The notes under the pieces: generated by a model | The model's input: the letters and a program-made list of their open reading frames with translations, nothing else | What the model was told of the DNA's origin: nothing | The model's database searches: none | DNA from: Amphiscolops sp. MND2022 | Lineage: Eukaryota | Length of the DNA stretch: 64,000 nucleotides | NCBI GenBank assembly: GCA_964187785.1 | Contig: OZ076409.1 | Location: forward strand, 11,348,001-11,412,000 | Reading direction: 5' to 3' | Shown here: one piece after another, positions 12,901 to 40,984 of the stretch | Numbering within the stretch: the stretch's first letter is position 1 | Layout: each line of letters starts with the position of its first letter | Translations under genes and position numbers: made by a program

Positions 12901-13256
12901 AGTATTATCACCCTTCCAGTGTTAGAGTCTTGTCGCTGCAACTCAACAAATCGGGTCTTCATCGCTTGGATCACTGTTGAGAACATTTCGGGTATCTGGG
13001 GTTGGTACTTGATTTTGATTGCATTTTGGATTGCCTTAAAGAGTCGTTCTCGCCTGTTTATGACATCTATTCGTCGTAACAGTAGCTCTGCTATCTGTTT
13101 GTTGTCATCATTCCTAGCTAGGTTTTCATCAATTGCTCTGATCGTCTTGCCGTGCTCGCAAGCTGCATTCCAATGACTCACAATTTGGGCCGCGTCTGCA
13201 GAGTTCTTCAGAAAGTTTTCAACTTTGTTGATATCAAACAGTTTTGGTTGAGCCAT
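6876..13256 (-). CDS. BEL/Pao Gag-Pol polyprotein (2126 aa)
   Basis: Gag FSGDPLEW motif, three Cys/His knuckles, protease LCDSGAS, RT ADVEAMF / FYMDD, RNase H IFADAS / IPRLELQAA, integrase VDYFGP / SDNGTNF / GGVWERMV. The stop lies inside the 3' LTR. Confidence 0.97.
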   Translation of the reverse strand: MAQPKLFDINKVENFLKNSADAAQIVSHWNAACEHGKTIRAIDENLARNDDNKQIAELLLRRIDVINRRERLFKAIQNAIKIKYQPQIPEMFSTVIQAMKTRFVELQRQDSNTGRVIILMSALQDENQILNYLDLEEKKRGIDEKIAHNEKLRDERIENGEDAEEDYAAACQELLQERSDLKLKIEALLKSGEAGAILRSLEDAEQRLADVRASVAADKSSKNGTSPQKEPQPDDEQKEHDGHNADDSQEPRNGARSLPIEELSIHSRSERAKSNKTSVISKTSSARRVMHLELKALKEHEELQKRLEKLEREAKEKEIADLRQEVARKARIAEKEIEMAKVPSSCGSSFGSISPVGTPDDNLTKVSDWMDKTEEAENVALSINVPPSYQQTSISAPVISARSTHGGQGSAQVRDLKSSLKPVMSTEAAVRGLGMDRTKTVIGVGSQRATTQPEVKFATSKPSMTLMANQSWVPPTNGGNPSSAFQVPQLENTQKQYMPSHGPNIVSNARDDYYIRSSLPKLKLAVFSGDPLEWPEWSQLFQATVHAANMDDSVKMNHLKTMVTGKAKEAIAGLGYTAEMYNVAWNVLVRNFGKPQMVVNAQLKRIYSFPPMKPYDGAALIKFARIVSSCVNVLTEFNYVGDLNSEGVLGSATRKLTLDMKTKWLTYVKQMNLYQPGLSVFSEWLYDIADVQDELLLSSNPNADRAKSNYKEKAKGSTFATSTTNTASDNSKYQRECALKDGKHPIWKCEKFKKMNVEERGQKAKELKLCFKCLSDAHQMRNCSGRLCDVNGCGKPHHRLLHRPYKNVEQKQNVENVEEVSNLSSMKSSGVLPVIPVTIGSGRKNVKTFALCDSGASLSFVDESLMKALNLTGQPVDLNVAGIHGTSDISSKRLRVKIGDKDGKVKEDIMAFSHPNVNAGNRTYNIKKLKEAYPHLSVLRDSTINLGEVKVILGQDCYHLHRAIDYRKCGNAKPWAVRTKLGWMLSGPLPQQETAKLATESLVAAEVDPLADQVKSWWSMESYASNCSVSGRSKEDERALEMLKATTKFDGKRYEVGLLWKNAKPHLPNNYSSAVSQLKSLERRLEKDANLKQRYKETIDVDVQKGFVRILDEAELENTKSDLQWYVPHLPVLNPNKPDKVRRVCNAASKFGGVSLNDKLMAGPDLLQSLIGIIFRFREKEIALTADVEAMFLQVKVPPTDCKVLRFLWRENHTEPISVYEYGRHIFGAKSSPTCVNYALQQVGRDSRDDNGMVAKLINRNFYMDDFVKSVASREEAVEVYNCLRKSLADRGFQLTKWICNSEKVMEEIPSEDRSDALSKTFEAEPLAPSILGLQWNVESDSLEICRGTGKEVPVKITQRIVLSHVSSVFDPLGLFSPFTVRMRLLLKGIWKKHGQSWDEQVSPEDEIAFKDWASELSHMNEMAIKRKYLSKNAEVVDLHIFADASLEAMCIVAYFRDQQTGELAYVVGKCRVAPMKQQSIPRLELQAAMYGTRLKQLIVDEHDIQVERTFFWTDSTTVLQWLHGADKKQPVFVANRVAEILDSSTIDQWRYVEGILNPADIGTRGQSVHELEKSEWFTGPAWLREKEVAWPQTSPQLFQQKTEDIEQVFEVVPEEKNIDWEKFGSFRRMTRIFAYCLRFKSKIKGKVVITEEMQQVIRLLLRKSQMESFGPTYQALAAGKPMAASDNLNKLSPFMEDQNLMRLKGRLRHADASYEMKHPILLSAKHPIVRKLIGDAHESNYHEGTEYVSSILQQNYWIIGLRNALRNVKLKCVKCRKQQVGGVQPFMADLPKERLEERVFPFANTGVDYFGPFEVRFMRKSMKRWCCLFTCLTTRAVHVEVVTSLEADACLAAITRFIARRGKPNIILSDNGTNFVGAAREMREWIEAWNQSDIEQSLAQKQIKWKFNPPGALHFGGVWERMVRSCKKAMMAIVGNRTLTDDVLFTTMCLVEQILNSRPLTSVSNDPEDLEALTPNHFLLGRASPATPFIPDAQRYTDLRRVFRVSQAYADMIWSRWNRECLPQWNERSKWNKEEVRQLEVNDLVWIVDENVKRAHYKMGRVLDVYHGSDGRVRSALVKTEDGKLKRPVVKLAPMFYESVFREKNRAGNVGASQLRDQKLKLERD

Positions 13257-13283
13257 TTCTTCTCTTCTTGATTGAACTCAGTT

Positions 13284-14589: not shown

Positions 14590-15813
14590 GATATCGAAAA
14601 GAAAGCAAAAAACTGTGTGGCCCGCATGGCATCCGGTAAGAATTTAAAATACCAAATACCGAAACGCGAACTCGGAAAACTAAAAACACTAACGGAACCG
14701 AGACAAGAAATTTAAACTGATTTTTCCGGAAAACTAAATAACGAAAAACTAAATCTCGAAGTTCACCTCGAAAAAGTGCAAAGAATTTTGTGAATCAAAA
14801 AATATAGAAATTGAATATAGCACACCGAGAATCCATACCGGTACGAGAGCAGTAGAACGCGCAATACAAACATTGAAGATTTTAATCATTACCAACCTAG
14901 AAGGAAACATATGCCTATGCGAATGTGTAAATAGAGCAATGAACGTGATGCGCTTTACAATATATACGGGGATGAAAATCACGCCATTCGAACTACACCA
15001 CGGTCGGAAACCAAGAACCGAACTAACGAACGTGATAAAAAACGGAAGATCATTCCTTTCTAACTGGTCGGAATTACCTGTTTTAGCAAGTGATAAACCG
15101 AAGATCCCCATCTATATAACCAGAAATGGTGATGGAGAAGTGGCAAATCACATAGTAATGGCCCGGACCAAGAATGAACAAAAAGCATTAGCCGAAAAAT
15201 CTCCGAAGAAGAAAAATTCGGTTGGTTTATACCCTTTCCAATTCTTTGAATAGAACCATAACAAAAAATCGTTGGAAGGTAGATTTCAGAACAAATTACA
15301 AAATGTAAATGGTACGGAACAAACCATAACCACCGACACCGGAAATATTATCCACCGAAAATTTTTTGCGGGTCCGAGTGTATTTCAGAAAGAAAGGAAG
15401 GCAGCCCCGAAAATCGGAGACAACATCGGATCCAAAAATCGCCATTGCCTCAGAGGAGTCGACGGTAAATATATGCAATGGTACTGCGTGACGTACTCAA
15501 CGGAAAGTTGAAAATCGTTCCAAACCAAAGAACCGAATCAGACTCGGGAAGTGAAAAGGGCGAAATAGAGGATGACGAGAGTGATTTCGAGAATCACGAT
15601 ACCTCCGAGAAAAACGGCTGCTACCGACCAGTGACAACATCCCCCGAGGATGAACTCAATCTACACACCGACGGTGAAATAGATACCTGTGAGAAAAAAC
15701 TTAAAAACAATACAACAGAAAACGAAAGAACAAGACGATCAAACCGTAAAAGTAGACAACCGAATAGATACAGGGTGTTACATATACAAAAAATTTCTGG
15801 GTGTGATTATTAA
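14590..15813 (+). pseudogene. pol: Remainder of Gypsy element 1 integrase and C-terminal tail
   Basis: Removing the BEL insertion restores ...WWPNMQKDI|EKKAKNCVA.... Later fragments include ERAIQTLK and TPFELHHGRKPRT. The core is partly deleted and frameshifted. Confidence 0.88.
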
Positions 15814-17253: not shown

Positions 17254-17849
17254 CGGGATGCCAAAACCAACAATCGTTATAACTGTTGTCATTTCAATAT
17301 CATTCGGTCATATCAGTAGTAACTAGTCATAGCCAGAGGAGCCAGAGGAGCCAGAGGGAGATACCCCCTCTCCCAGCAGATGACAGACCTTCAGCTAAGC
17401 CAGGAAACAGGGACCACTTCCTTTCCTCAAAAGGTAGGCGGCGAAACAGCTGTGACAGGCCTCCTCATTCCATGATGAGACCACACAATTCACCAAAGTT
17501 CAAATTACTGACGTTCCGAATTTTCTAACAACCCGAATTTTTATCTGGTAAATGAGATCAGCGTGGAAACTTAGTGAACAACCCGAACCTGAGGGAAGCC
17601 CCGTTCGACTGTACCCCTGGCCAATACCCGTCACCAATACCCTTGATCCCCGCAACGTGACCCATGACCCCTTGAGCTTGACTTCGACCCTCCGGAAAGT
17701 ACTCGTAGTGGTAAAACTCGTCGAAGTTGAAAAAGATTCTAAAGAGAAAAATCTATTTTACGGTTCAAGCATTCATGCAAACAATCTTCGTGAAAATGTG
17801 CAAAATCTGATTGATAAAACTTTCCAAGATGAAAACGAATTGATAATCC

Positions 17850-18307
17850 GACAGGACGTCCTAAATAAGAGCCTCTGTAAACATTAAAGCAAGTTTTATC
17901 GTTCTTCATCAGTATTTTACCTAGTAAATGTCAAATAACCTTGAAATATTGCATGAAAGGTCTTTCTAGCCATTGGTTGATTTTGTTTCTAAATATTCAT
18001 AATCGCATCAATCTGACTCTTTTTCATATTCATTTTGCTTCAATTTGTCACGGATTTAGCCGATATTTTGTTGAAATAAGTTATTTAATTCATTGGCTTT
18101 CAGCCAACTTTAGACACCGAATTTTAAAGTTTTACAAGACCGGAAAAATAGAAGAATGAACTAACGGCAAACCCCTGTGAAACGGGGTCTCTATTTCATA
18201 ATAGCGTCATAATAAGAAGTCTCGAACGTTCAATTACTTGAACAAAGATAAGGGGTGAGCATGACTTGGCTTTATACGTTTTCCCGTTTTGCAATACACT
18301 GAGACGT
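17850..18307 (+). repeat. Repeat block B (second copy 34764-35256; diverged relative near 2545-2800)
   Basis: Direct match from GACAGGACGTCCTAAATAA to GCAATACACTGAGACGT. Confidence 0.88.
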
Positions 18308-18453: not shown

Positions 18454-18628
18454 ATGGGAATATTATTTAAAATAAAAATGGGATTAAGATCTAAATGGAA
18501 TAAGATCTAAACTTTCAGGACGGGATTTTAATATTTGAAGTAAAAATGGTATTAAGATCTAAAGAGAATAAGATCTAGAATTTCAGGACGGGATTTTAAT
18601 ATTTAAAGTAAAAATGGGATTAAGATCT
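18454..18628. mobile_element. Left part of a TAAGATCTAAA-repeat foldback MITE split by the env-bearing element (right part 33356-33423)
   Basis: Repeated TAAGATCTAAA units continue after the 3' LTR and end in inverted copies (TTTAGATCTTATTC). Confidence 0.65.
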
Positions 18629-19040
18629 TGTGATGCCATGATGCATGTCCTCAAAGATTCTATAAATCTGAAATACTCTGAACTCTTAACCAAAGTAATT
18701 AGCAGATGTAATCTAATTCGAAAGCTAATTATTCTAGAAGAAACATCATCTAATATATCCTGTACCAAGCTTCCCCGATTCGTCCTGTTGCTGTCACATT
18801 GTTAATTGATGAAACCTACCCTAGTTAATAGAATATATATACACGGAGAAATTGAGAATTCATCCTAGCAATCGGTCTTCCTCCCACACTTCAAGAACTG
18901 AGATCTCAGAGATAGATTGTACTCAGAACTAGCTAGCTACAAGAAAAAAGATAAGACGACTCTGCTGTTAAAATCTTAGACTTCTTATGTCAGTAATAAC
19001 ACTTCTAAAAGAAACCACCACACAACTTTTTAACAGCTCA
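18629..19040 (+). repeat. 5' LTR of env-bearing element
   Basis: TGTGATG...GCTCA; matches 32944-33355 with about 11 substitutions counted by eye. Confidence 0.96.
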
Positions 19041-19042
19041 AT

Positions 19043-19053
19043 TGGTGCGACCG
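19043..19053 (+). promoter_or_regulatory. Primer-binding site (probably truncated)
   Basis: TGGTGCGACCG two nt after the LTR, fused directly to gag-coding sequence. Confidence 0.7.
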
Positions 19054-19990
19054 GCTGGTGTAATGAGAATGCATCCACTATGAACCTCAAATGTAATGAA
19101 ATCTTTACAAAAGGACTTCCAAAAAACCTTAAAGTCTTTGCAAATAAAAGGCAAGTAAAACACACTTCCACTGTTCTAGAACCTTCAATTCCTTTTCATA
19201 CATTAGTAAAACTTGTTGACGCTGAAGATATTGCAAACGACAAAATCAGAACACATGATCTTGCACTTGAAATTAACAATATTACAAAACAATTGAACAC
19301 TCAAACTCTTGACCCCTCATCTCAAGAGCAACTTATGTATACACAACCCAAAGACCCGAATAACAAAAATAAACCTGCATACAAAAAATATTGCTCATAC
19401 TGTCATAGAACAAATCATTCCATTTCTGCTTGTTTCAAAAAACAACGAGATGATGAAGATAAACGAGAAGCATATGCTCGATCAAAATCTCCACAAAAAT
19501 CATTCGTTCAGTACTTTCGTTCTCCTTCCAATGATAGAACAAATTACTATGATAATCGATACCGAAGTCGAAGTACTTCACGAGACAATTCTTACAACAA
19601 AAATTATTCACAAAACCGATACCGTTCTACATCTCGCGATGGAGATAGATTTCGTTACGACAAAAGTACTACTCCTCCACACTACTCTAGATCAAAATAT
19701 GATACATACAAACGTGATTCTCGGTCTTACCGTTCTCCTTACAGATCTTCTTATAGATCCCCATATCGACAAAACTCTCGTCCTAGATACAGATCACGCT
19801 CCTATTCAAGAGACAACAAATTCACAAAGTACACAAATTCATATAGACCACCATCAAGACCAAGAGACTCTAGATTTTCTAGATCCCGCTCACACTCCAA
19901 TTCCAAAAATAAAATCAATATGATACAACAACAAGACCAAACTGACCCTGTAAAATTTGAAGTACACATGTATCACCCAACAGCAATGGC
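19054..19990 (+). pseudogene. gag: C-terminal part of gag: single CCHC knuckle and Arg/Ser/Tyr-rich tail
   Basis: CSYCHRTNHSISAC at 19392-19433 followed by RS-rich repeats, in frame with protease LDSGAS. The N-terminus is apparently deleted. Confidence 0.85.
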
Positions 19991-22900
19991 AAATGCTGTC
20001 ACACCTACAAGTTGGTTTTATACACTATATGTACATACACCATCAAGTATAGTACAAAGAGACAACCCATCCCGATTAGAAATTGCATTCCTCCTAGATA
20101 GCGGTGCTTCCATTTCTGTACTCAATTACCCAACATATAACTCTTACAAAACTTCTAGATATCAGATCAAATCACACCTCTGATGTTGAACCAACTCGAA
20201 ATTCCAAAACATTAACTGTTGCAAACCAAACTGAAGTTCCTATTTTACATTATGCAAATATAATTTTGAACACCACTATTGATGAAAACTCTCGTTACTT
20301 TTCAGTACCTTTCGCAGTAGCTGATATCAAATACAACATCCTTGGCACACCATTCTTTGAAGACAATATACAAAACATAAACATACAAGACTTTACACTC
20401 GAATTTAAATACCAATCAAAAACACACCCAAGTTATGCAAAGTTCACAACACTCCTATCTAAAGATTATCCATATTTCTCTTACATTTATAGAATTAATT
20501 CAAAAACTCAAATACGTCTAAAACCCAAGTCTTCAAAAATTGCACACTTTCCAATTAAAAATTATCATAATCTTCATTTTACAACTGCACCACAAAACCA
20601 CTTCTTTCCTTCAGTACCTCATACCTATTTTGCTACCAAATTTCGTACAACTTTCAATTTCATTGAAGTATTTACAGATGACAAGCCAGACATTTGTGCA
20701 ACTATTATTCAGAACACTTCAAAACATGTTGCAACCCTGCCTACAGGACATATTGGATACATTGATGTTCCAATTACTAATGAAAAACCTAAATTCTTCC
20801 AAGTTAACGACATTAACACTTTAATACATAATGTTACTCATACTTATCATCCTGATATTACAGAACCACTTCCACAAACTAACTATATTGTACAATATGA
20901 TGATCCTACAACCCCTCCTCCTCAATTCTCTCTACATCAAATTTATATGACAAATAACGACATTCCAAATCAAACTTCTCCTTTATATAACGTTCAACCT
21001 ACTTCTCACACTTCCGAAAAACGCATTTTCCCTTCTCTACCATATACTTCTGAAAATCTGAAACTTAATAATAAATTTAACTTCCAATTTTCTGACCTTA
21101 CAGATACAGAATACATTACTCTTTGCAATATGTTACTCAAGTATAAAACATGTTATGCAACTCATAAAAACGACGTTGGAAAAATTTCAACACCATTTCG
21201 TATACGACTTAAACCAAATGCTCAACTTATGACACAACGTCCTTCCAAAGTCCCTATTCACTACCGAGACAAACTTAACGTACTTCTCAAAGAACTCGAA
21301 AAATATAACATTATCAAACAAATAGGTTCCTCTCCTCAAGACAAACCCGTTTATGGCACAACTTATTTAAACCCTCTCATTATAATCCCAAAGGGAGATT
21401 CAATAAAATGTGTATTAGACGCTCGACACCTTAACTCCAATACAGAACAATCTGATGAATCTTGGCCTATTGAACCTCTTGCTCCACAACTAGCACGCGC
21501 AAATAAGAAGTACAAATCTGCTATTGACCTTATGTATGCCTATGCACATACACCTCTTGACGAAGACACTATAAAACTTACTAGTTTCTCTTCCGGAGAT
21601 AAACTTTTCGCTTTTATCCGAGGCTTTTATGGTCTCAAAGGACTACCAAACTTCTTTACAAAACAAATGTCTACTTTCTTTAAAACTCTTATACAACAAG
21701 GTTTCGCTCTTGTCTACATTGACGATATATTACTTTTATCTGATTCTAAAGAACACATGTTCCAACTCATAGAACAACTACACATTATTAGTACAAAAAA
21801 CAATCTTAAACTAGCCCCTGAAAAATCCTTTTTCATGCTTCTTAAAGTCAAATTCCTTGGACATGAAATTGGTTACAATACAATTAAACCAATACATTCA
21901 AAAATTGCAGCTATCCATAAAATCCCTTCTCCAACTGGCAAAGTTGCCCTATTGAGTTTCATTGGCGCACTCAATTTTTACACCAAATTTATTGAAAAAC
22001 TACATATTAACCTCAAACCATTTTACGATCTTTTACATGAAAACACTCCTTGGAAATGGACAGACGAACACGAAAGTCTATTCCAAAAACCCAAAATGTC
22101 TCTCACTTCTGAAACAGAATTAACAATACCAAATACAAAACATCCATTTTTCATTACATTTGACGCTTCCCTTAATGGTTTAGGCGCTGTCTTATTCCAA
22201 TTAAATGACCAAAACAAAATGAAAGTCATATCGTACAACTCTCGTATACTTAATCCACAAGAACAAAAACTCTCCACACTTGATAGAGAACTTCTTGGTA
22301 TAGTACACGCACTTCAAATCTATGAATTTCTCATCATAGGTTCTCCCCATCCAATACACATTTTTACTGATCACAAACCTTTATTACATTGTTTTACAAA
22401 GAAAGGTAATCTCAGTCCTCGTTTCTACAGAGCTCAAATGCAATTGACAAAGTTTTCAAAACTCAAAATAATTCACACTCCTGGAAAAAATCTCTCTGTT
22501 GCCGATATGTTAAGTCGCTCCTTCACAAAAGCTGAATTACAACTAAACCAGTTAAAACATAAACACCTCCCACCACAAATCGATTTTGCACTTCTACAAG
22601 ACAACACTCTTAAACCTGTACATTACTTAATTAAACATGAAGAAATTTTACCTCATCAAAAACATGACTCTGATCCAATTCTCGCTGATTATGGTACAGA
22701 TCAATTCTCTATTCGTATCAATGATAAAGGAAATGACATTGTTGTCAAACCATTACAATCCTTCTCATTCAAATCTATAACTTTTTTTCAAACTAAGTTC
22801 AAGACACCAATAAAAAAGAACAATAAAACCCTTCATCAACAATCTCTCTTACTTAATGATACTGACGTTACAAGTGATGACGAAGATCATATATACACCA

Positions 22901-24960
22901 GAATTCCAAAATCTGACTCTTCCTTCTTACAAGACACAACATTACAAACAGAAAATTATTCTACTCTTGAACAACCAACTCACACTACCTCACAAAAATC
23001 AGTTTCTGCAATAAATGTACAACCCAATATACCCTCTCTAACACACTGTCAACAAAATATACCTTTCTATGATACATCATTTTTTAAGTACAAAATTTAT
23101 TTTCAAGGTTTCTTCCTTACTCATTAGACATAAAAAAACTTCAACAACAACAATCCCAAGATCCGGTTCTTAGAACTGTTTATTCTTGGTTATTAAACAA
23201 TGAAAAACACGAATTTGTAACACCTCTTAGTACTGGTACTCCATTTTTACATGTATATTACAAAAGATTTTCACAACTTTTCATCATCCACAAATCTTAT
23301 TAGTCTATATATTACAAACCCTACTGTTATAAACCAATCCTCTACTCCAAATTTTGTATAAGACACTATTCGTATATGCCTTCCTTTTCGACTGTTCAAA
23401 ACTGTCTTTAACAAACTCCATGAACACTCTCATACTGGTATGAAAATTACATACAATACATTCAAACAATATTACTACATTCCATTTCTTGAAAAATGGC
23501 TTTCCATTTTCATACATGACCGTATTGAATGTCAACGTAACAAACACTTCAATATGATTTTTCGAACTGCTCCTACACAATCATTTTCAGAACATGCTCC
23601 ATCTTTCAACTATCGAATTTCAATGGACACTAAAGGACCTATTAATCCTCCTTCTCACAATAAATCCTATATACATGTAATTATTGACGCTTTTAGTCAC
23701 TTTGTTGTTACAGTACCCATTAAATCAAACAACGCAAAGACTGCTATCAAAACTCTCCTACACCATTGGATTATTAAATTTGGACCACCTATATATCTTG
23801 TCACTGATGGTGGATCAGAATATGTTAATAAAGAAATGGCACACCTTTGCACACTTATGGGAATTCGTCATTCTCCTAGAACAGCTTACTCTCCTTGGAC
23901 AAATGGCCTTGTTGAAGTACAAAACAGAAATCTTGGTACCCATCTACGAATGTTCTTACATGACACACCTAAAGATTGGGCATTCTAAGTCCATATGTAC
24001 GCTTATGCACATAATTCACAACCACTTTCAGAACTCAATATTTCACCTCACGAAATTGTTTTCCACACCCGACCCAGAATACCCCTTACATTTGATTTGA
24101 ACCTTAACCGAGACACCTCTAAAACATGTATTTCACGATATTGCTCTCAACTTCCAGCACACTCCCATTATGATTAATCAGATTTAAACCCATTTTTCAA
24201 TAAAACCCTTTCAAAACCCATTCCCCAATGGTTTCTCGCTGTAGAAACTGCTATGTTACAAATTTATTCTACAGTATACGAAAACACCCTACGAAAAATC
24301 AATTCACAAGCATACATTACAAAAACTTACCATGAAGGTAAACCCCTTCCTATTGGTACCTTTGTTTTAAAACGCAATTTTACACATGTTCATTTTTCTG
24401 ACAAACTCAAACCCCTTCGGATTGGACCATACAATATTCTTGATAGATTATCAGATGTTACATATGAACTACTTGCACAAGATGGCTCTACAGTACACGT
24501 CCATAGAAATCATTTAATCCCATATTATCCAAAAGAACCACTCGTATAACCACATCTGCGTAGTTTTATGCGCTTTTCAGATACAACTCAATTCCATATT
24601 CCACAACCTACCAAATATGCAAACAGTGATTCTTCCCCTTTTAATTCAGACGAATCCTTGTCAGAAGAAGATTCTCAAACATTTGTAACGCCACCATCAT
24701 TTAGTACATCCAATCAAAATACACCATCTATAACATCCAATGACAAGTCTTTGACTCCCTCAACCAATGACAACTCCTTATATAGACATATAATTAATAC
24801 CCCTCACACTAATGTCTCTAGTGACAGATCAAGACACTCATCTAATAACCAAACAACTTCACTTCCTCCTCTAATTGACAGAACCACAAAAACTACTTAT
24901 AAACTACGACAACAACCCCAATTAGATTATAGACTTTTTATTACACCCTCAAAACTGTAA
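19991..24960 (+). pseudogene. pol: pol: protease, RT, RNase H, integrase with GPY/F module
   Basis: LDSGAS; SAIDLMYAY / GFYGL / YIDD; DAS / RELLG / TDHKPL / ADMLSR; HEHSH..CQ, MDTKGP, TDGGSEY, NGLVE, IGPY. Frameshifts near 20137, ~23120 and ~23285, and several stops. Confidence 0.95.
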
Positions 24961-25046
24961 TCCTATCATTCTATCCGCTGGCTCACTCAAAACTAGTCAC
25001 TCCAGTTGAATGAAATATAACCCATAACAAGTTATCTCAAAGATAA

Positions 25047-26285
25047 CCTGTTGAAAATACTTCAACAATCCTGGATCCTCCCTCTGATATACCTCCATCA
25101 GCTCCAAGTATTCCTTCCACACCTGAATCTTCAGTATCAAGCACTACAAACTCTAGTAATGTAACTCCTACTACTCCTTCTAAAAGATCAAGATCATACA
25201 TCTCTGAAACTACCTCTTCATCACTTCTTCATAGACCACCTATAACTGAAATCCCTATAAACACCCGTACTCAACAAACTCCTATTAACACTCCTATTAT
25301 ACACATACCAAATCCTGAAAGTGTTGAACAATACGTTACCTACAAACATCCTACAGCTATCAAAACTGTTAGACTACAACCTCAACTTAATCTTGTACAA
25401 ATCCCTGATACTGAATATACAAAGCTACCTTCACTGAAATTACCATCAGAACTTAGCACTACTTCTTCAAAACTTTATCCACCATTAAAACCTCTTCGAA
25501 AACCTTCTACATCACTCTCAAATCTCTTAGACAATACTTCAGACTACGCTTCATCACAAGACACAAGCTCACTTTTTGTACCTAAACATCGATATAATCT
25601 TCGTGACCTCCCTTCACGTAGACTTAGTACAGACACTTCAACACTCAATTTTTCCGCTCTTTCTAGCAATTCTGCACTACGACTTGTACGACAACACGCT
25701 CAACCATTGTCCTCTGACACACCATCTTCAGAACTCTTCCAATCTCCTTATTTTACTTCTGGTTTTGAAACCGCTTCATTACTCTCATCTAACCCTCAGA
25801 CTGCATTTTTATCAGGAGACCTTTTTTCAGAAGTAGTAATCCCTACTCCTGTTCCTGCACATATTCGACTACCCGAATACTATACTGCAGAACACTCTAG
25901 ATCCCCAACTCCAAATTTTGCTGACTATCCACTTAGAGTCGATGGTATAACCATCTACGACCCACAAAACGATCCCCGATTTCCAATTCTTGCAGAACGT
26001 TTCATTAATTACAACGACCTCTTATCTCACAAACGCAAAGAAACAGAACTAAAACGCCTTCAGACATCAAACCTAGAACTTAAACTTGAAGTCAAAGTCA
26101 AATTTCAAGGATTAAATCCACACCCAATATTTCACGTTTCTAAAATAGAACATAAAACCTCTCCTGCTCCTTTTGAAGTAGTACATATTGAATTTGAACG
26201 CGATCTTAATATACCCACTATCACCTATGGCAACATTGTCTTCTGTAACCCATATTCCGGTCTTAAATATACAACATCTTTTTAA
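25047..26285 (+). CDS. ATG-less 412-codon stop-free frame between pol and env (Ser/Thr/Pro-rich N-part, unknown function)
   Basis: Manual translation shows the frame of ORF 25707..26285 stays open back to a TAA at 25044-25046. It contains PPSAP. Confidence 0.65.
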   Translation, partial: PVENTSTILDPPSDIPPSAPSIPSTPESSVSSTTNSSNVTPTTPSKRSRSYISETTSSSLLHRPPITEIPINTRTQQTPINTPIIHIPNPESVEQYVTYKHPTAIKTVRLQPQLNLVQIPDTEYTKLPSLKLPSELSTTSSKLYPPLKPLRKPSTSLSNLLDNTSDYASSQDTSSLFVPKHRYNLRDLPSRRLSTDTSTLNFSALSSNSALRLVRQHAQPLSSDTPSSELFQSPYFTSGFETASLLSSNPQTAFLSGDLFSEVVIPTPVPAHIRLPEYYTAEHSRSPTPNFADYPLRVDGITIYDPQNDPRFPILAERFINYNDLLSHKRKETELKRLQTSNLELKLEVKVKFQGLNPHPIFHVSKIEHKTSPAPFEVVHIEFERDLNIPTITYGNIVFCNPYSGLKYTTSF

Positions 26286-28970
26286 ACCCTACACAACCTT
26301 TTACATAACAAATCTAATACTTTATTTACATTTATTCAACTCTACCTTTTCCATACCCATAACACCCTCTGACACAGAAAACTATCTTCCATCGGATGAC
26401 CCAAATATTACAAATCTCATGGTTTCTCATTATGACTGTGCAAAACAACACAATCTGAGACAATTTAATCTACTTTATGTAAAACAATGCACTGAAGCTC
26501 CTTCCGACATTAAACATGCCAGTGTTAAAGCCCGTGTATATGTCCGAGCAAAAGCTAATCGTATCAAAGCTTTCAAATGTGTTGCTTATGCAAAGAAAGA
26601 AAGGAAAATATGCTTTCAAGGTTCCGTAAAATACCGTCGTGTTGATAGAACCGTATGGAATCATAATACATTACCACTCCCTGTTACTCTTGATCCAGTA
26701 GAATGTAAAAACATTATAAGACATTTAAATGGTACAAATGATAAAATATTGAACAACCTTCAATACAACAAAACTTTTACACTCTTAGAAGATCATTATT
26801 TTAAAGAACGTTTAGAACAATATCAAACTCCTTTCACTGTATATCAACTGAACAAAATGTATACAGGTACATTTACATTTATGCCTGCTGATAAAAACTG
26901 GATATATGACCCTACTCAAAACCCTTATCATAACTGTCCTGCTCATCACCAATTTGAAGTCAACTTAGTTAGTTGGCGACTAGAAATTTCTGAAGTAGAA
27001 CTTACATATGATGAGCGACTAGAAATTTCTGAAGTGGAACTTACATATGATGACACATCTAATGACATGATAATCGATGGACATACATTACCCTGCTACT
27101 TTGCAGATGGTTTCTGTAAACCCACTACAAAAACCCCTTTTACTCTTGTTTGGTTCAATGATGACTATTGTCTAATTTTTACCTTACAAGACTTTATTGG
27201 CCGTATGACTAAAATTGAAGATAGATATTGGATTGAAACAGACTCTTTTGTACATTCTCCACACCCAATAATATCTAAACCAGCTTCTGGTACGAAGGTA
27301 CAGAATATCCCTATGTTTATGCTCCTCATACACAACATCCAAATAACCCAAGTCTTTCAAGATTTGAAGTTTTTCCTACAGCACAAACCTTTTGTGGTAA
27401 ACCAGACCCTCTCTATTCTACACAATATTCAGACTTTTTGTTACCTACACTGATGGTTTCAATATGCATACAGGACAACCCAATCCTCATTCCATGATTG
27501 ATGAATATATTTCTGGTAAAATAGTATTGGACACTTCAAATAACAAATTTGTATTCCCTGCATTAAATGTATCAAACAATTTTGCTACTATTGATTATGA
27601 TGCGCATATAAACACCAAACTAGATTATACTATTAATCATGTTTTTAGATCAATGACAGTACAAGAACTAAATACCCTTCATACAATATGTGAACTAGAA
27701 CGTAACCAACTCCTTACAATACTCGCAATGTCAGTACAAAACCCTCAACTTGCTGGTTTCCTTTTAACCGGTAATAGAAGTAATTTCTTATACGTTGAAG
27801 GCTCAACCGCCTGGCTTTACGACTGTCCTCATTTTTTATCTCTTTTATACAAAGCAGATAGATGCTTTGACCGTATACCCATACATTTTAAAGATACCTT
27901 AATGTACGTTGATCCTATTACAAGACAAACTTATGATTATGCTACACCAATTACATGTGATAATAATCCACGTAACATTATTGAACTAGACCCTGATTCA
28001 GACGACCAAGACTTTTACATTCTTGGACCTGAACCTATTAAACGCAAACCACCACTAATGTTTACACCTTCACAAATCAAAACTACAAAACGCCCTAATA
28101 CTTTTACAGCCCAAGATGCTGGTATATATTCAAATGCAGAACTTGACAAATTTTGGAACCGTATTTTATTTTCTAAACATTCTGATTCTACACTCCAATT
28201 AATAGGCAAAGCTCTTAGTTATTCCTTCATTTCATCTAATACTCCAAATTACGATGCAGATTCCCCTCAAGACTCTGGCAATCCTTACAACACATTACGT
28301 ATAGGACTCCATGATAAACTCTTGAATTTAACTCCTCTTTTTACACCTACATGGTTTTTAGATGCTTTTATTGCACTTTTTGGATACCCTTGTTACATTC
28401 TCACACAATGTGGTATATACTTTTCTACATTTCTTTTCGTACAAGCTACTCTTACACTCTGTCAAACTTTACAAAACAATATCTATTAAATATAATCTCA
28501 AAAATAATATTACTTTATTTAGTTCTATAGCACATGGTTTTTTTAATGTTCTTACAGCACGAATGGTCAGTCACCTCCATGAGACTCAAAACAAAAAACC
28601 TAAAAGTAAACTTTTAAAATCCAAATCCTTAGATAATTTTATTGACACTTCTCCAAATTTAATTAACCATTCTACAGATGTTACTTCCCCTCCACCTTTC
28701 TACACTAAACGTCCTAACAAAATTCAATTTCCTAAATTTAATTTGTTTCCGAAACGACACCACAATTCCCACCAAAAAACATCTACACTTCCTTTCTCTC
28801 CTGTTCAACATCCTCCACTTCCTAATTATACTCATAAAAACTTTCACTCGAATGACAATTTAACTACTCAACATGACACTTTAATTAACAATCCTGTCAC
28901 TTGTACTACGGATACACCAATTAAAATCTATTCACGGATAAACTATCCTTTTCCTCCTCCATCTTCTTGA
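26227..28970 (+). pseudogene. env: Envelope glycoprotein, class III fusogen-like (herpesvirus gB / chuvirus G type), frameshifted
   Basis: ATG at 26227, hydrophobic signal-like stretch, YDC..C start, many Cys and N-x-S/T sequons, CELER...NPQLAGFLL...WLYDC...CFDRIP core, C-terminal hydrophobic segment and tail. Split over ORFs 26188-27453, 27464-28489 and 28362-28970. Confidence 0.85.
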
Positions 28971-29179
28971 ACACTCTTTCTGTTTTTCTGTAACTCTCTT
29001 CCAGAACACTTGTATACTATCTCTTCACAATTGCTACTCCTCCACCGCTCGAAACCCTTGCAGAAGTTGATCTTCCTCAGCCCAATAATACATCTCTCAT
29101 AATAACCGTCTTCAAAAACTCTTCAACTAAAGTTGATAAATCCACTCGTTAGTGTAGTTTATAGTACTTTCACTTCAAA

Positions 29180-30880
29180 GTGATAAGGCCTCTTGGAATA
29201 GATAACACTGTTGTTGTTGATGATAACATTGTTGATGTTTTTAAACACACCATGACACAAGCACAAATTGATCTACAAACACAGCTTGAACAAGCAACCC
29301 CAACAGATCTTATAACTAGACATCTTTCAAATGATTCTTCTGTTCTCTATATTGAGACTTCTGAACAAACACCTCCATCTTTTCTCGAACAAATGGAACA
29401 CACAAAAGCTGAACACGAAAGTTCAAAACCTACTCCTTCCCAAGATGATACTGATCATACACAACCGACACCACCTACTCCAAAAAAAACGATATGAGAT
29501 TATGAAAGATCCAATCTTTCTTTCGTCACCAGTATATCTTCCTTCAATACCTTCAAAAATTTCACTGTGCACAAATCGTGATGATCATTTGATCCCAATC
29601 CTTTCTACAGACGATTTCGTCTTTAAAGCACAGCTAACTTCTCTATATATGCATCCTACTGACTATTCATTTCGCTTATATGACAAAAATCAAGACTTCT
29701 TTACATCCATTGCCTCCAAAATAATGGGTCCATACCAATATTGGCTCGATAATGGAGTTAAATATTTCTCTCTCCAATTCAATTTTCTTCGACCGTCTAT
29801 CTACGATCTCAAAACAGATGAATCTGATCCATCTTTTCTATCTATAGCACAAAAAGCTACTCATCATCAAACATATACTAAATTCCTGCAATACACGAAA
29901 CCACAAAATCACATTTTTGTCAATTACAAATATACTTCAAAGTGATTGTAATTTGATTCAATTTGTAATTTTGTCAATTACAAATATACATCACCGTTCA
30001 CAATGACAAATATGTACACTCTGGACCACTCCTGTATAACAGGCTACCTTCGAAACTATGACCCTATAAAACAATACTTCTGTTTGCTTCCATACAACAA
30101 TACTTCACGCCCACTTATTGTACCTCAAGTATATCTCATACATTACGATGATTTTTTGTTGCCTTGCAACATTCCTACTCAAATTGCCAAACCTCTTACT
30201 GTTATTAAACACCTAGTATCTTTTCCCCTTGACGATAAAGATAGAACGTACTATACAGCACTCTACAAGCAAACGTATTCCTACAATGAACTTCTCTTCA
30301 TATCTGCCAAAACTATCTCTTTCATGGTACAAGCTGAACAAAAAACTGAACATAAATCACACGCTTCACCTATAAAAAACGCTCCTGACAAACTTTCCTC
30401 TGTATTAAACAACCGAGCACTTCGCGACATAATAAATTTACTTGATCCCTATAAACGAAACTCCTCTGAAACACCTATCACAACACTCACACATATACTA
30501 CACTGCTATGACAGAACACACAAACTCCTTCAATTTAGACTCTCAACGCATCACTCAATCATCCCAAGCAATTCAATCTGCTTTGGAAACTATAACTACC
30601 CTTTTTAACTCAACTAATCTTCATTAAACTCTTATACAGGTAATATAAAGTTTTTAATTTTTCTTCTCTGGTACTTTCTATGATCCATCTTTGGCACAAT
30701 ATCAAAGGTATTTTTACTTTTGCTTACTTTTTTAAAATTAAAATCTTTCTTCTGAATGAAATCTCAGGACTATCTTTCACGTATAATATTCTTTCCTACA
30801 GCACATGTCAAACAGATAACTACTTCTATCAAAAAACAACTACAATACAAGACATACAAAACAATATAGCACAACACTAA
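29180..30880 (+). pseudogene. Post-env accessory ORF(s), frameshifted, unknown function
   Basis: Consecutive overlapping + strand ORFs (29180-29497, 29331-29945, 30003-30608, 30442-30627, 30680-30880) inside the LTRs, with the element's codon bias. Confidence 0.55.
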
Positions 30881-31048
30881 ATATGATACATTCCAGCTCC
30901 AAATTTTGTTGTACATCTTTGACTTGATATTGACATTTTTCTTACACTTCCTCTGTTTTAGAAACATCTATTCTTCCTCCTCCTTCATCCAAATTCTTTC
31001 AGAACATCCCAACTTCTCTTTCTTCGCATTCTTCCAACCCTCGTCATC

Positions 31049-31497
31049 ATGGCTCCATATGCTGAAACAAACGACATTATCACTATGACCTCAGAGTTTT
31101 CAAAAGTGCATAGTCTCAAAGCCGCCATATTTCACACCATGGCATTCAAACTCTCGCTTGAAATTCACAAAAACAAAACTACGCCAAAATGTCTCATCGC
31201 TTTCTTAAAAGTCCTCTACAATGTCAGATAAAAAAGAAAAAAATTACTTTTGAGCAATACTCGCGGATCCATCTTCAAGGACCTAAAATTGCCATTTGCG
31301 AAACGGCATCTAATGTTGTATTCGTCCTAAATTCTTCCTTTACTTCAAAGGATCAGTATTTTCGTACTGCTCTCCACGAAGCCACTGACGCTTTTAATAA
31401 TATGCTGAAAGATTTCGGGTATACTCAGAAATTAGAACTCTATGACCCGATCCCACACCAAACTCATCCTCCATCGCAAAACTCTCTCTTTCAATAA
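31049..31497 (+). pseudogene. Second post-env accessory ORF (~150 aa, one frameshift)
   Basis: MAPYAETND... and ...ITFEQYSRIHLQGPK... join across an A-run near 31230-31243. Confidence 0.5.
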
Positions 31498-31722
31498 TCT
31501 CTATAACACAAACTTCTACTTACTTCTATTTCACTCTTCAACTGCATTTCGTCTCCAAATCCTTCATCTTTCTTCGATGATGCATTGAAATGTGGTTGCT
31601 GATCACTCCTCCAAAGAACTTCTCCTACACATGCTGACACTCTTCACTTCACCCATCCACGATGGTCAACAACATCCATCTCCACTTTGGGTTCATCGAC
31701 GTTGCCAACCTTTGTCCTCGTC

Positions 31723-31827
31723 ACTGGTCTTCACTCCACGATGACTTCTTGACTGGTCTTCATATCTCAGATGCTGACTTCTTGACTGGTCTTCACACCT
31801 CAAATGCTGACTTCTTGACTGGTATTC
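31723..31827 (+). repeat. 33-bp tandem repeat (~2.5-3 copies) in the 3' untranslated region
   Basis: TGACTTCTTGACTGGTCTTCA.A.CTCA.ATGC units starting at 31742, 31775 and 31808. Confidence 0.85.
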
Positions 31828-32943
31828 GTACTCCAATGGACTATACTCCAAATTTCAAACATTGTACTCCAAACTTGACTCAATTTTCAAACTGAACTAT
31901 ATAATCCATTTTAACAAATATAACTTGTAACTTATTGTAACCTATTTTAATCAACTTATAACTTTAATACCGTGTAGTGCTATATACTCTTATCTAATCC
32001 TTAGTGCTATATACTCTTATCTAATTTTAATCTTTTGTAATCGTATTATAATTACCCCTCTGTTTCAAAATCCCCAAAAAATTTCTACCGATAATTATCT
32101 TTGTAACCACAATATTATCTGCTTCTATTGTCTTGTGTATAGTACATTGATATAATCTTATCTAATTATTTTGTTATATCTAAAATACACTTCAAAAATA
32201 TATCTCTAATACCCATCTTTTACAGAACACAAGTCCTACCTACAGCACAAGAAATTTTCTAAGATTTTTGGACAAAAATTTTTCTTTTACAAAACATGTT
32301 CTCCACCTTTGTTTTAATCCCCAAAAGCATTCCCAAAAATTTTCCAAATTTTTCTTTACAACTGTTAAAAAATGTCACTTCTCGTTTTCTACTGTTTGAA
32401 ACTTGAAATTGCCAAAGTTTTTTTTTCAACTTTTGCCTCTGCTCTATTCTTCACTTTCGTTGAAAATGAACTCTCACTCGAACCTTGACTTTTCGAAACT
32501 TCTTCACTTTTGGTTCACATACCCGCCAATGTTGGTTCACAACTCATTGACAACTTCACACTTTAATTCTTCAACTTGAAAAGTTTTCAATGCTGACTAA
32601 GTCATGTTGATGAAAGAATTTTTTCAAACAAGCCGATGGCTGATACGAAAAAGGAAACATGAAATGATGAATAGTTGTCAACAATAACTTCATAAGAACT
32701 TGTCAGTTAAAGAAACTGAAAGAACTTGAACCTTGCTTGAACCTTTTTGCACCAATTGAATCGTTTATGACGTAAGAAGTCAAATAGTCTTAGGTTGTTC
32801 TCACTCCTTAAGTATGGTACTCTACAAAACGAAACTCATGCAACTCTAGTACAACACATATGAAACAAACCCATGCATATAACAAAAAACTCCTCAAACC
32901 CAAAGTGCGTATATGTAATTTTATTTTTAAATTCCCGGTTTAT

Positions 32944-33355
32944 TGTGATGCCATGATGCATGTCCTCAAAGATTCTCTAAATCTGAAATACTCTGAACTC
33001 TTAACCAAAGTAATTAGCAGATGTAATCTAATTTGAAAGCTAATTATTCTAGAAGAAACTTCATCTAATATATCCTGTACCAAGCTTCCCCGATTCATCC
33101 TGTTGCTGTCACATTGTTAATTGATGAAACCTACCCTAGTTAATAGAATATATCTACTCGGAGAAATTGAGAATTCATCCTAGCAATCGGTCTTCCTCCC
33201 ACACTTCAAGAGCTGAGATCTCAGAGATAGATTGTACTCAGAACTAGCTATGTACAAGATAAAAGATAAGACGACTCTGCTGTTAAAATCTTAGACTTCT
33301 TATGTCAGTAATAACACTTCTAAAAGAAACCATCACACAACTTTTTAACAGCTCA
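32944..33355 (+). repeat. 3' LTR of env-bearing element
   Basis: Direct repeat of 18629-19040, followed by TSD ATCT. Confidence 0.96.
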
Positions 33356-33498
33356 ATCTAAAAGGAATAAGATCTAAAACCACTAAAATTTAGATCTTAT
33401 TCTTTAGATCCTATTCCCCTCCCAAAATAGCTATGGCTCAAGTGATGAAGGCGAAAAGGGAGGAAAATATCCCGGTGCTTAGGTGGCGTCTTGTTCGT

Positions 33499-34746: not shown

Positions 34747-35263
34747 CAATCTGACGAAAATCTGACAGGACGTCCTAAATAACAGCTTCTGTAAACATTA
34801 AAGCAAGTTTTATCGTGCCTCGTCAGTAATTTACCTAGTAAATGTCAAATAACTTTCAAATGGAAAGGTCTTGCATGAAAGGTCTTTCTAGCCATTGGTT
34901 GATTTTGTTTCTAAATATTCATAATCGTATATTGTTCATTGGCCTGCCAAACGCATCAATCTGACTCTTTTTCATATTCATTTTGCTTCAATTTGTCACG
35001 GATTTAGCCGATATTCTGTTGAAATAAATTATTTACTTCATTGGTTTTCAGCCAATTTTAGACACCGAATTCTAAAGTTTTACAAGACCGGAAAAATAGA
35101 AGAATGAACTAACGACAAAGCCCTGTGAAACGGGGTCTCTATTTCATAATAGCGCAGACACCAGATTTCTCGAACGTTCAATTACTTGAACAAAGATGAG
35201 GGGTGAGCATGACTTGGCTTCAGACGTTTTTCCCGTTTTGCAATACACTGAGACGTAATTCAA

Positions 35264-39812: not shown

Positions 39813-40733
39813 TCATTTCTTCAACTTCAGGGAATAGTTTTTTCCTCCATTGTTGTCCCAAAATTCCCCATAAGCACTCGTGAACTTGACACAAAAGTTG
39901 ACCTCGCTGCTGGAAATCTCGGACGCCTTGCAGTGAATTTCGAATCGAAATTGGTCGTATATTTGAAGCACGTTGTTTTCTGGGAAATGAGCCGAAGTGA
40001 CGTCACGGAAACTGTTCCAATTATCGGTAGTGTATCTCACCGTAACTTCTTTCTGTGCGCCCAAATTCACAACAGCAACCATCCCAACTATCATGGTGCC
40101 ATACGTCTTTATATTGGCCACCACAACCTTTTGCAGGTCCAGTTTGGGCTGTCTTCTGTTCAGTTCTACCCTGGGCAGGTAAACTGGGATGAAACTTCGC
40201 ATTCCACGAAGTGACGTAATAAGTATTTCACGCTCGTTTTCGTGATCGTAATCTTCGTAATCCGATGACTCATTACCACCTAGTTCGTCCAGGTTTTCAA
40301 TCGTCTTGACGAGTTCCAAGTTCTTGCCACAGTCGTCGGCAAAAACGACTCGCTTCTTTTTCAAACACTTCGGGTCCGACTTTCCAGCTTTGAGTGAATC
40401 AGTCGAAGAGCGTGATCGTTTGAGAGATCTTTTGCAGCAAACTTTTGCCCGTCTTTTGCTTTTGGGTGTTGCAGGTTCGCACAATTTCGAGTCATTTTTG
40501 ATCGAATTTGACCTCAAGGTCAAAGATTCAGCAGGTTCCGCGTGTAGTTTCGTCAGCTCCACGACTAGTTGAAGGGGAATTGTGCTGAGTAATTTTGGAC
40601 CAATAAATTCATTAGACGGGCATCGTTTGCGGAATAAAAGCGATTCGAAAGACGTGGTTGCGTGAAGAACGTCTGAAAGTGACATATCTTTGTCGCGCTG
40701 GGACGTTTTTTTGTGCTTCTTGTTTTCGTCTGT
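39813..40733 (-). CDS. PPP1R3: Last coding exon of glycogen-targeting protein phosphatase 1 regulatory subunit (PPP1R3 family, CBM21)
   Basis: KKKRVVFAD (RVxF), VVNLGAQKEVTVRYTTDNW and FWDNNGGKNY motifs. Phase-0 acceptor TTTTGCTTTATTTCAG ends at 40734. Confidence 0.92.
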   Translation of the reverse strand, partial: TDENKKHKKTSQRDKDMSLSDVLHATTSFESLLFRKRCPSNEFIGPKLLSTIPLQLVVELTKLHAEPAESLTLRSNSIKNDSKLCEPATPKSKRRAKVCCKRSLKRSRSSTDSLKAGKSDPKCLKKKRVVFADDCGKNLELVKTIENLDELGGNESSDYEDYDHENEREILITSLRGMRSFIPVYLPRVELNRRQPKLDLQKVVVANIKTYGTMIVGMVAVVNLGAQKEVTVRYTTDNWNSFRDVTSAHFPENNVLQIYDQFRFEIHCKASEISSSEVNFCVKFTSAYGEFWDNNGGKNYSLKLKK

Positions 40734-40984
40734 CTGAAATAAAGCAAAAGTACAATCAACATATTGATAGCTTGAAATAAATAGCTTGCATATTGCAATA
40801 AAAAAACTCAATTGTTTTTGTACGTTTGTTGCTTATAAACGTTAGCACCGACGCTCCATTTTAAGATCTAAGTTCTATGTAGGTTTGGAATGAACTCCGA
40901 GTAAAAGTTGAATATTTAACTCGGATTTTATAATTTTTTCAGTAAGAAACATTTATCTTTTTGTACGTTTCTTTTCACTGCAAA

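Follow-up and report, generated by a model that had tools for sequence, protein, structure and literature searches.

A deleted retroelement copy in Amphiscolops sp. MND2022 and the large Ty3/gypsy family, with a chuvirus-like envelope and three extra genes, to which it very probably belongs

What occupies the 8 kb that separate the integrase of a retrovirus-like element of Amphiscolops sp. MND2022 from its 3' long terminal repeat (LTR)? The DNA examined, referred to here as the window, is a stretch of 64,000 nucleotides from contig OZ076409.1 (assembly GCA_964187785.1, positions 11,348,001 to 11,412,000 of the forward strand), and coordinates are window positions throughout. The element lies at 18629-33355 on the + strand. 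Its pol stop codon (24960) and the start of its 3' LTR (32944) are 7,983 bp apart, in agreement with the figure of about 8 kb in an earlier note on this sequence. So long a post-integrase region is unusual for a gypsy element, and that is the only lead for regarding it as a one-off nested insertion or a chimera. The answer at which we arrive is a different one. The window copy, shortened by an internal deletion, is a dead member of an LTR retroelement family with high copy number; very probably that family is of the Ty3/gypsy type, about 18 kb long, and endowed with a chuvirus-like envelope gene (env) and three further genes, designated ORF-X, ORF3 and ORF4.

The evidence begins with the other copies. 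A search of the species' own 1.07-Gb assembly with the LTR yields 3061 first-look candidates, of which the 40 best were scored (95-100% identity) and assemble into 12 same-strand pairs. Seven of these pairs are spaced at 17,254-17,611 bp and three at 20,965-23,517 bp; the two shorter ones measure 15,249 bp and, for the window copy, 14,315 bp. An element devoid of the post-integrase block would have its LTRs about 9.5 kb apart, and none of the 12 pairs comes near that spacing. Eight other copies were compared with the window copy, each as two overlapping stretches. The region homologous to window 23.3-33.4 kb is complete in all eight, and the post-integrase block has the same order in every one of them, which settles the worry, already voiced in the earlier note, that the block might be an accident of this single locus. 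The order ORF-X, env, ORF3 recurs in a sister subfamily within this genome, and strand composition is uniform over the whole element, with GC skew of about -0.2 to -0.5 throughout and near 0 in the flanks. Against this evidence the nested insertion or chimera retains next to no probability.

What sets the window copy apart is a loss at its other end. All eight other copies have an extra 3.2-3.35 kb between the bases corresponding to 19052 and 19053. The breakpoint is 12 nt past the 5' LTR, within the primer-binding site (PBS), and the missing DNA comprises the leader and gag residues 1-764, the capsid domain among them. A 100-nt probe laid over the junction finds a full-length match in the window alone; the other 39 of the 40 scored matches end at the junction. 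The deletion is private to the window copy. Full-length members of the family measure about 17.7-18.0 kb and have a leader of about 1.06 kb and a 3' untranslated region of about 1.4 kb. Thus, the unit of 14.7 kb described in the earlier note has the right borders (412-bp LTRs and an ATCT target-site duplication) and, because of the private deletion, the wrong length for the family's design; similarly, its gag is a remnant, the C-terminal quarter with zinc knuckle and Arg/Ser-rich tail, with the capsid and about 760 N-terminal residues gone. Matching 4-bp target-site duplications surround all three of the other copies whose two flanks are both covered, and the members of LTR pairs diverge by 1.0-1.9% in three other copies as against 2.7% in the window copy. 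(The leader of full-length copies contains two tandem units of about 45 nt, each with a weak GTAAT donor-like site, at L037:700-800; these units are absent from the window copy.)

The order of parts given in the earlier note (gag, protease, reverse transcriptase, RNase H, integrase, ORF-X, glycoprotein, further open reading frames) is recovered by Pfam matches and open reading frames, at the following coordinates.

18625..18628, +: target-site duplication ATCT, 5' copy (the identical 4 bases lie 3' of the 3' LTR)
18629..19040, +: 5' LTR, 412 bp, TG..CA ends (alignment to the 3' LTR)
19043..19052, +: primer-binding site, shortened by the deletion, whose junction lies between 19052 and 19053
19053..20133, +: gag remnant, residues 765-1012 of the full reading frame, then the start of the protease
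19392-19433, +: CCHC zinc knuckle of the gag remnant
about 19557-19913, +: Arg/Ser-rich tail of the gag remnant
20091-20111, +: protease start, DSG motif
20134..24960, +: pol, with protease, reverse transcriptase, RNase H and integrase (zinc finger, core, SH3-like) (Pfam)
21715-21726, +: YIDD motif of the reverse transcriptase
25047..26285, +: ORF-X, 412 aa, open, without a Met codon (no Pfam match)
26227..28970, +: env, predicted chuvirus-like class III glycoprotein, start Met at 26227 (PF24664, fold matches)
29165..30624, +: ORF3, of about 440-465 aa in its open form, with a Met at 29252 (sister-subfamily homology, selection signature)
30980..31497, +: ORF4, of about 150-180 aa in its open form, with the first Met at 31049 (selection signature)
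31498..32943, +: 3' untranslated region, without coding signature (shared variants by codon position 18/17/21)
32944..33355, +: 3' LTR, 412 bp (alignment to the 5' LTR)
33356..33359, +: target-site duplication ATCT, 3' copy

The two LTRs are direct repeats that differ at 11 positions, with 0 internal gaps (repeat finder and direct alignment); both start with TG and end with CA, and ATCT stands on either side of the element. Two nucleotides 3' of the 5' LTR begins the PBS-like, TGG-initiated sequence TGGTGCGACC, which in six of the eight other copies has two extra bases at the place of the deletion junction; the remaining two have point changes. The sequence abutting the 3' LTR (32884-32943) is conserved in nine copies and is pyrimidine- and T-rich, an odd composition for plus-strand priming.

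Are the extra open reading frames genes? The nine copies (the window copy and the eight others) diverge mainly by private changes, about 1% each, and these are attributable to decay after insertion, so that variants common to two or more copies should stem mostly from the time when the lineage still replicated. Comparing the nonsynonymous/synonymous ratio of shared variants with that of singletons gives a test of the McDonald-Kreitman kind that needs no consensus. Its outcome, as nonsynonymous/synonymous counts, is as follows.

gag C-terminus: shared 9/25, singleton 56/38, p 0.0012
pol: shared 32/78, singleton 350/186, p < 0.0001
ORF-X: shared 8/23, singleton 103/47, p < 0.0001
env: shared 14/38, singleton 203/103, p < 0.0001
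ORF3: shared 2/11, singleton 89/50, p 0.0009
ORF4: shared 28/54, singleton 41/25, p 0.0009

Shared variants fall at codon position 3 in 20/31 cases for ORF-X, 38/52 for env, 11/13 for ORF3 and 57/82 for ORF4, and for singletons the three positions are about equally represented. The third-position signal is gone in shifted frames, and shared variants are evenly distributed in the non-coding controls (10/7/6 by position for 30625-30975, and 18/17/21 for the 3' untranslated region). The selection analysis that the earlier note had proposed for env and the accessory frames thus yields a purifying signature in env, ORF-X, ORF3 and ORF4 alike. By this signature, which is the same as that of gag, pol and env, ORF-X, ORF3 and ORF4 are genuine genes under purifying selection, and all six coding regions were under such selection while the lineage replicated.

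The contrary view, that ORF-X, ORF3 and ORF4 are non-functional, as chance open frames or decayed passengers, can draw on their anonymity: no database gives them a name, a known domain or a fold, whether solved or predicted; ORF-X is without a start codon, and the sister-subfamily copy examined yielded no ORF4. It is very improbable all the same. Nonsynonymous depletion is specific to the reading frame, as it is in pol and env; ORF-X and ORF3 are about 40% identical to long open frames of a subfamily whose env is 53% identical; and frames of at least 400 codons are open where, at the base composition of the element, chance would place a stop about every 17 codons. The anonymity itself is thorough. 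No Pfam family matches ORF-X, ORF3 or ORF4, and for ORF3 relaxing the threshold to E 5, with 14 family members, still brings none. ORF-X has a Ser/Thr/Pro-rich N-terminal half and a conserved C-terminal half, and was not found fused to a longer protein among proteins of 722-2060 aa, which is weak evidence. For ORF3 there is no usable ESM Atlas match, the AlphaFold model failed (mean pLDDT 34), and a viral fold search with that failed model returned no match at E <= 0.001, which is uninformative either way. A profile search of 1.84 billion representatives with ORF3 collects 661 clusters; among the 150 listed, most are short unannotated fragments.

The sister subfamily gives independent weight to two of the three genes. 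Its env, 53% identical to that of the window family, is free of internal stops in 31 of 50 scored matches. Ahead of env it has a homologue of ORF-X (a 477-aa frame, also without Met, 39.7% identical over aa 117-412), and after env a homologue of ORF3 (40% identity over aa 77-369). Class III env genes are very abundant in this genome generally: searches with two other env types give 12,555 and 8,868 first-look candidates. One distant env-carrying gypsy family (G000:C7:21875300-21882430, minus strand), whose env is 27% identical to that of the window family, has its integrase directly abutting env and hence no ORF-X; after env comes a 524-aa coiled-coil reading frame (P0172) without a Pfam match, which is unrelated to ORF3 (hhalign probability 0.1). 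Genes after env seem to be a recurrent theme, with different proteins filling the slot.

These comparisons bear on where the genes came from. In chuvirus genomes the glycoprotein gene G is followed by genes for the nucleoprotein and a small protein. The env of the window family is nearest to chu-like and xinmo-like glycoproteins, ORF3 and ORF4 come directly after it, and their sizes roughly recall those of the two chuvirus proteins, so that env, ORF3 and ORF4 might have been acquired jointly from a single chuvirus-like RNA virus. ORF3 and ORF4 would then descend from viral genes for a nucleoprotein or a small protein, and would be neither new nor taken from the host. Such an origin would be compatible with everything argued so far, and we consider it improbable: ORF3 has no match in Pfam, at the permissive threshold already mentioned, and the unrelated coiled-coil reading frame in the same position of the distant family suggests that the slot has been filled independently.

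Env itself is recognized chiefly by its Pfam score. Two pieces of the broken window env match PF24664 (Monjiviricetes_fusion) with E values of 3.9e-21 and 0.0067, the fragment scoring 75 bits, and an open 917-aa env from another copy reaches 85 bits, where the cut-off is 27. Its relatives in the protein database number 52, all unnamed, and 50 of them contain PF24664. The translation shows by eye a start Met (26227), a hydrophobic signal-like segment, a transmembrane segment (28367-28441) and a long tail. An AlphaFold model, built on a 12-sequence alignment, finds its best Foldseek matches in BFVD among xinmovirus, chu-like and tick-chuvirus glycoproteins (E 4.5e-13 to 1e-10). In the PDB, herpesvirus gB (HSV) comes first (E 2.9e-7), followed by Dhori Gp and baculovirus GP64. 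VIA-align superimposes the model on gB domains I-II with Z 7.8 and an rmsd of 10.7 Å over 225 aligned residues, and on lyssavirus G with Z 6.7-7.3. Poor though the model is (mean pLDDT 46), every leading fold match is a class III fusogen and none is of the F type. The product would accordingly be placed with chuvirus-like class III fusion glycoproteins, an assignment for which the Pfam score is the firm evidence.

The gag and pol genes of the family have to be reconstructed from its full copies, in which a single Met-initiated frame follows the leader and runs from gag straight into pol. In one copy, gag is open for 1012 codons, from its start to an in-frame stop within the Arg/Ser-rich tail; in another, nucleocapsid to the end of integrase is one 1864-aa frame. 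Taken together, these two copies imply that gag and pol share a single frame of about 2,730 codons, uninterrupted by any frameshift site at their boundary. Pfam places the capsid (PF03732, Retrotrans_gag) at gag residues 692-764 of full-length copies, just inside the part that the window copy has lost. Upstream of it lie about 290 ordered-looking residues and about 370 low-complexity residues rich in Ser, Thr, Pro, Asn and Gln; downstream come a CCHC knuckle and the Arg/Ser-rich tail. An alternative frame across that tail (19297-19923, +; 206-218 aa) is open in most of the copies listed and is probably a by-product of repetitive codon content.

The pol domains matched in Pfam, all on the + strand, are RVT_1, RT_RNaseH, Integrase_H2C2, rve and SH3_Tf2-1, and a bridge of about 315 aa is found at RNase H. 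Among solved structures the closest to pol is Ty3 Gag-Pol (7q5b, E 3.1e-48), with Ty3 reverse transcriptase next; then come a chain named 'Enzymatic polyprotein', which we take to be the caulimovirus enzyme (6.5e-27), Pr125Pol, presumably that of foamy virus (3.6e-15), and HIV reverse transcriptase (about 1e-4). In the ESM Atlas, pol finds generic gypsy clusters only. By its domains and best matches, pol would be of the Ty3/gypsy (Metaviridae) type. A chuvirus-like env was first linked to BEL/Pao elements, in mosquitoes, according to the part of the report available (PMC7642597), and one might suspect that the present element is likewise BEL/Pao, of the Anakin/Tas type, or else Troyka, Odin or a lokiretrovirus. 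The chance of that is slight. The element has no Pfam match to Peptidase_A17, DUF1759 or DUF5641, whereas a BEL/Pao neighbour in the window (6879-13277) matches all three; Ty3 outranks retroviral reverse transcriptases by more than 30 orders of magnitude; and Troyka, as far as the available text describes it (PMC12440569), has CG..CG termini and 3-bp target duplications, in contrast with the TG..CA termini and 4-bp duplication found here.

The window copy itself is thoroughly broken, with at least 16 frame breaks and no capsid, although ORF-X is still open. Pol is shifted once, at about 20134-20147, and has eight in-frame stops (23125, 23131, 23194, 23218, 23359, 23986, 24175 and 24547), of which five crowd into a 235-nt stretch between RNase H and integrase. 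Env has three frameshifts (about 27279-27312, 27434-27443 and 28419-28483) and a 13-aa in-frame tandem duplication (26977-27054). In ORF3 there are frameshifts at about 29484 and about 30454-30533, and stops at 29943 and 29949, adjacent to a tandem duplication of 54 bp; the reading frame of ORF4 is shifted once, at about 31225-31246. This copy could be mobile solely if supplied in trans, if at all. The earlier note had judged it defective and supposed that intact relatives might exist; relatives whose individual frames are open do occur.

A number of observations nevertheless weigh against the picture of an ~18-kb Ty3/gypsy family with six working genes. None of the nine copies examined has all its reading frames open. 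The Ty3/gypsy placement derives from domains and best matches. The N-terminal 660 residues of gag show no significant constraint (13/10 vs 57/32 and 34/24 vs 88/43): either this part evolves fast or the test is short of power there. ORF-X is without a Met codon in either subfamily, over 412 and 477 codons, and no conserved way of joining it to pol was found. For ORF4, the sole sister-subfamily copy examined offers no similarity, with a 195-aa frame in its place. The env model is confident solely at aa 95-330 and 365-410, and the fold comparisons, with TM-scores of 0.14-0.23 and Z below 8, are weak when taken singly. One exact acceptor-stem pattern search for a tRNA gene that would fit the PBS gave a single match that is not tRNA-like, and the sequence at the 3' LTR includes no purine-rich tract in any of the nine copies. 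(ARAGORN finds no tRNA in the window, and no Rfam family reaches its gathering score there.)

How does the family stand with respect to known elements? The insect errantiviruses in the strict sense (gypsy, ZAM and Idefix of Drosophila) are elements of about 7-8 kb with three open reading frames, the third being a gene for a fusion glycoprotein. The window family shares with them a Ty3/gypsy backbone combined with a fusion-glycoprotein gene, and they are thought to move between cells; it differs in its length of about 18 kb and its six coding regions, and in its env, which is predicted to be class III (PF24664), theirs being of the baculovirus/paramyxovirus F type (class I). To the complex retroviruses (lenti-, delta- and spumaretroviruses) the resemblance is one of working plan only: small extra genes between pol and env and after env, a gene without a start of its own (a matter of splicing in retroviruses) and a skewed strand composition. 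The pol is nearest to Ty3, not Retroviridae, and the family is no member of that group; Pfam reveals no homology of ORF-X, ORF3 or ORF4 to retroviral accessory proteins.

The closest comparison is with the survey of Chary & Hayashi (eLife 2026, PMC13524379), the available portions of which list 1,512 env-carrying Ty3/gypsy elements across metazoa, 221 of them typed ENV_HSV, and place the chuvirus-like glycoprotein of mosquito BEL/Pao elements beside gypsy pol as well, in 114 elements from several arthropod groups. The earlier note had thought of a possibly undescribed lineage, and of gB/chuvirus-like env captures as a matter mainly of BEL/Pao elements. On the evidence of those portions neither view is supported: the union of gypsy pol with a gB/chuvirus-type env is already in print, in 221 ENV_HSV rows and 114 gypsy elements. 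By its env, the window family belongs among these described env-carrying gypsy elements with gB-type envelopes, with which it shares the Ty3/gypsy pol, the order gag-pol-env, LTRs with a putative tRNA-type PBS, multiple copies and a predicted class III env. In contrast with the elements as the accessible text presents them, it is about 18 kb long and has an N-terminal gag extension of about 660 aa, a 412-aa reading frame under selection between pol and env (where the gap exceeds 1 kb), and two further such frames after env. A term search of the accessible text of that paper finds no description of accessory reading frames, and the PBS of the window family is not in its element table. Its pipeline, as set out there, allows a gap between POL and ENV of at most 1000 nt outside insects and regions of up to 10 kb, and its 'insect' and 'ancient' groups are defined by the RNase H bridge fold.

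Anakin, the mosquito BEL/Pao group with a captured Chuviridae glycoprotein (Dezordi et al. 2020, PMC7642597), is, by the part of that account consulted, likewise an LTR retroelement that uses a chuvirus-type glycoprotein as env and has been amplified in its genome, on a BEL/Pao instead of a Ty3/gypsy backbone. The consulted sections of a 2023 follow-up (PMC10084718) report no clear capture by Gypsy elements; the window family, together with the published portions of PMC13524379 just cited, indicates that such capture exists. Extra reading frames as such are recurrent in LTR elements of bdelloid rotifers (Rodriguez et al. 2017, PMC5408684) and of plants (PMC7264820), to judge from the excerpts at hand; those of the window family differ from what is described there in coexisting with a class III env and in having had their constraint measured directly. 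The literature searched, which did not extend to Repbase-type repeat libraries, describes no animal gypsy-env element with additional reading frames under selection. What is new is apparently ORF-X, ORF3 and ORF4, and not the combination of gypsy with a class III env.

The strand composition that runs through the element deserves separate mention. The coding strand is G-poor (A 0.34, T 0.31, C 0.24, G 0.106); its G content is 0.089 in the sister subfamily and, more mildly, 0.17 in the distant family. G-to-A hypermutation was considered as a cause and rejected: private G>A changes (0.0685 per G) show no excess over C>T (0.0899 per C). Among private substitutions on the sense strand, T>C (0.0555) exceeds A>G (0.0338), and this excess is unexplained.

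The surroundings of the element are mostly other repeats. The insertion site is a 68-bp tandem repeat (18461-18628 and 33356-33420), the units of which include short palindromic AAGATCT motifs, and the target ATCT is part of such a motif. On either side of the element, at 17842-18307 and 34756-35256, stands one copy of a direct repeat (about 470-500 bp, 87% identity); with the element removed, the two copies would be about 2.2 kb apart. The BEL/Pao neighbour at 6879-13277 (-), with an open 2133-aa gag-pol frame (Peptidase_A17, DUF1759, DUF5641, RVT_1, rve), seems to be nested in pieces of another, oppositely oriented Ty3/gypsy element (3535-6087 and 14753-15250, +), and a second BEL/Pao-like element (DUF1759 gag; 60731-64000, +) extends past the end of the window. 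The only clear host gene in the window is represented by an open 339-aa frame with a CBM_21 glycogen-binding module (39816-40832, -), probably an exon of a gene for a host protein-phosphatase-1 regulatory subunit.

By analogy with gypsy elements and retroviruses, an intact copy would be transcribed from its 5' LTR into a genomic RNA that doubles as mRNA for Gag-Pol, to be translated as a single polyprotein, and ORF-X, env, ORF3 and ORF4 would be read from subgenomic, probably spliced, RNAs. Since ORF-X lacks a Met codon, its frame does not overlap that of pol and no conserved splice donor exists at the pol stop, an exon with an upstream start codon or a non-AUG start would be needed. Two ways of attaching ORF-X directly to pol have been discarded. 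One is frameshifting, ruled out by the lack of overlap between the frames; the other is an intron with GT at the pol stop, AG 152 nt on and an in-frame join, for which the sister subfamily, with a gap of about 245 nt and many stops between pol and ORF-X, has no GT at the pol stop. A crude scan of leader and gag for splice donors turns up weak sites only. Env may serve spread from cell to cell or from soma to germline, and ORF-X, ORF3 and ORF4 might be accessory factors, for example in RNA export, in assembly or in countering host silencing; these last roles are guesses.

A wider proposal goes further and is correspondingly tentative, being in our estimation somewhat unlikely as a whole. The family and its sister subfamilies would be endogenous retroviruses of an invertebrate that evolved the gene plan of complex retroviruses independently, on a Ty3/gypsy backbone: three lineage-specific accessory proteins placed around a chuvirus-derived class III env, with ORF-X dependent on a splicing event or on an unconventional start of translation, the accessory genes regulating RNA export or expression or opposing host silencing, and the G-poor, C-rich strand being either adaptive for the replicating genome or an imprint left upon it. 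Nothing follows from the window copy in itself, a fossil, and the interest lies in the accessory genes. Env-carrying gypsy elements are known to be widespread and have been described as three-gene units, and surveys with tight limits of spacing and length may miss the largest of them. A family that retains three additional genes under selection would mean that invertebrate retroelements are able to attain the genetic complexity of lentiviruses or foamy viruses by a separate route, and it would supply three orphan proteins with testable roles, such as RNA export, particle assembly or defence against piRNA silencing.

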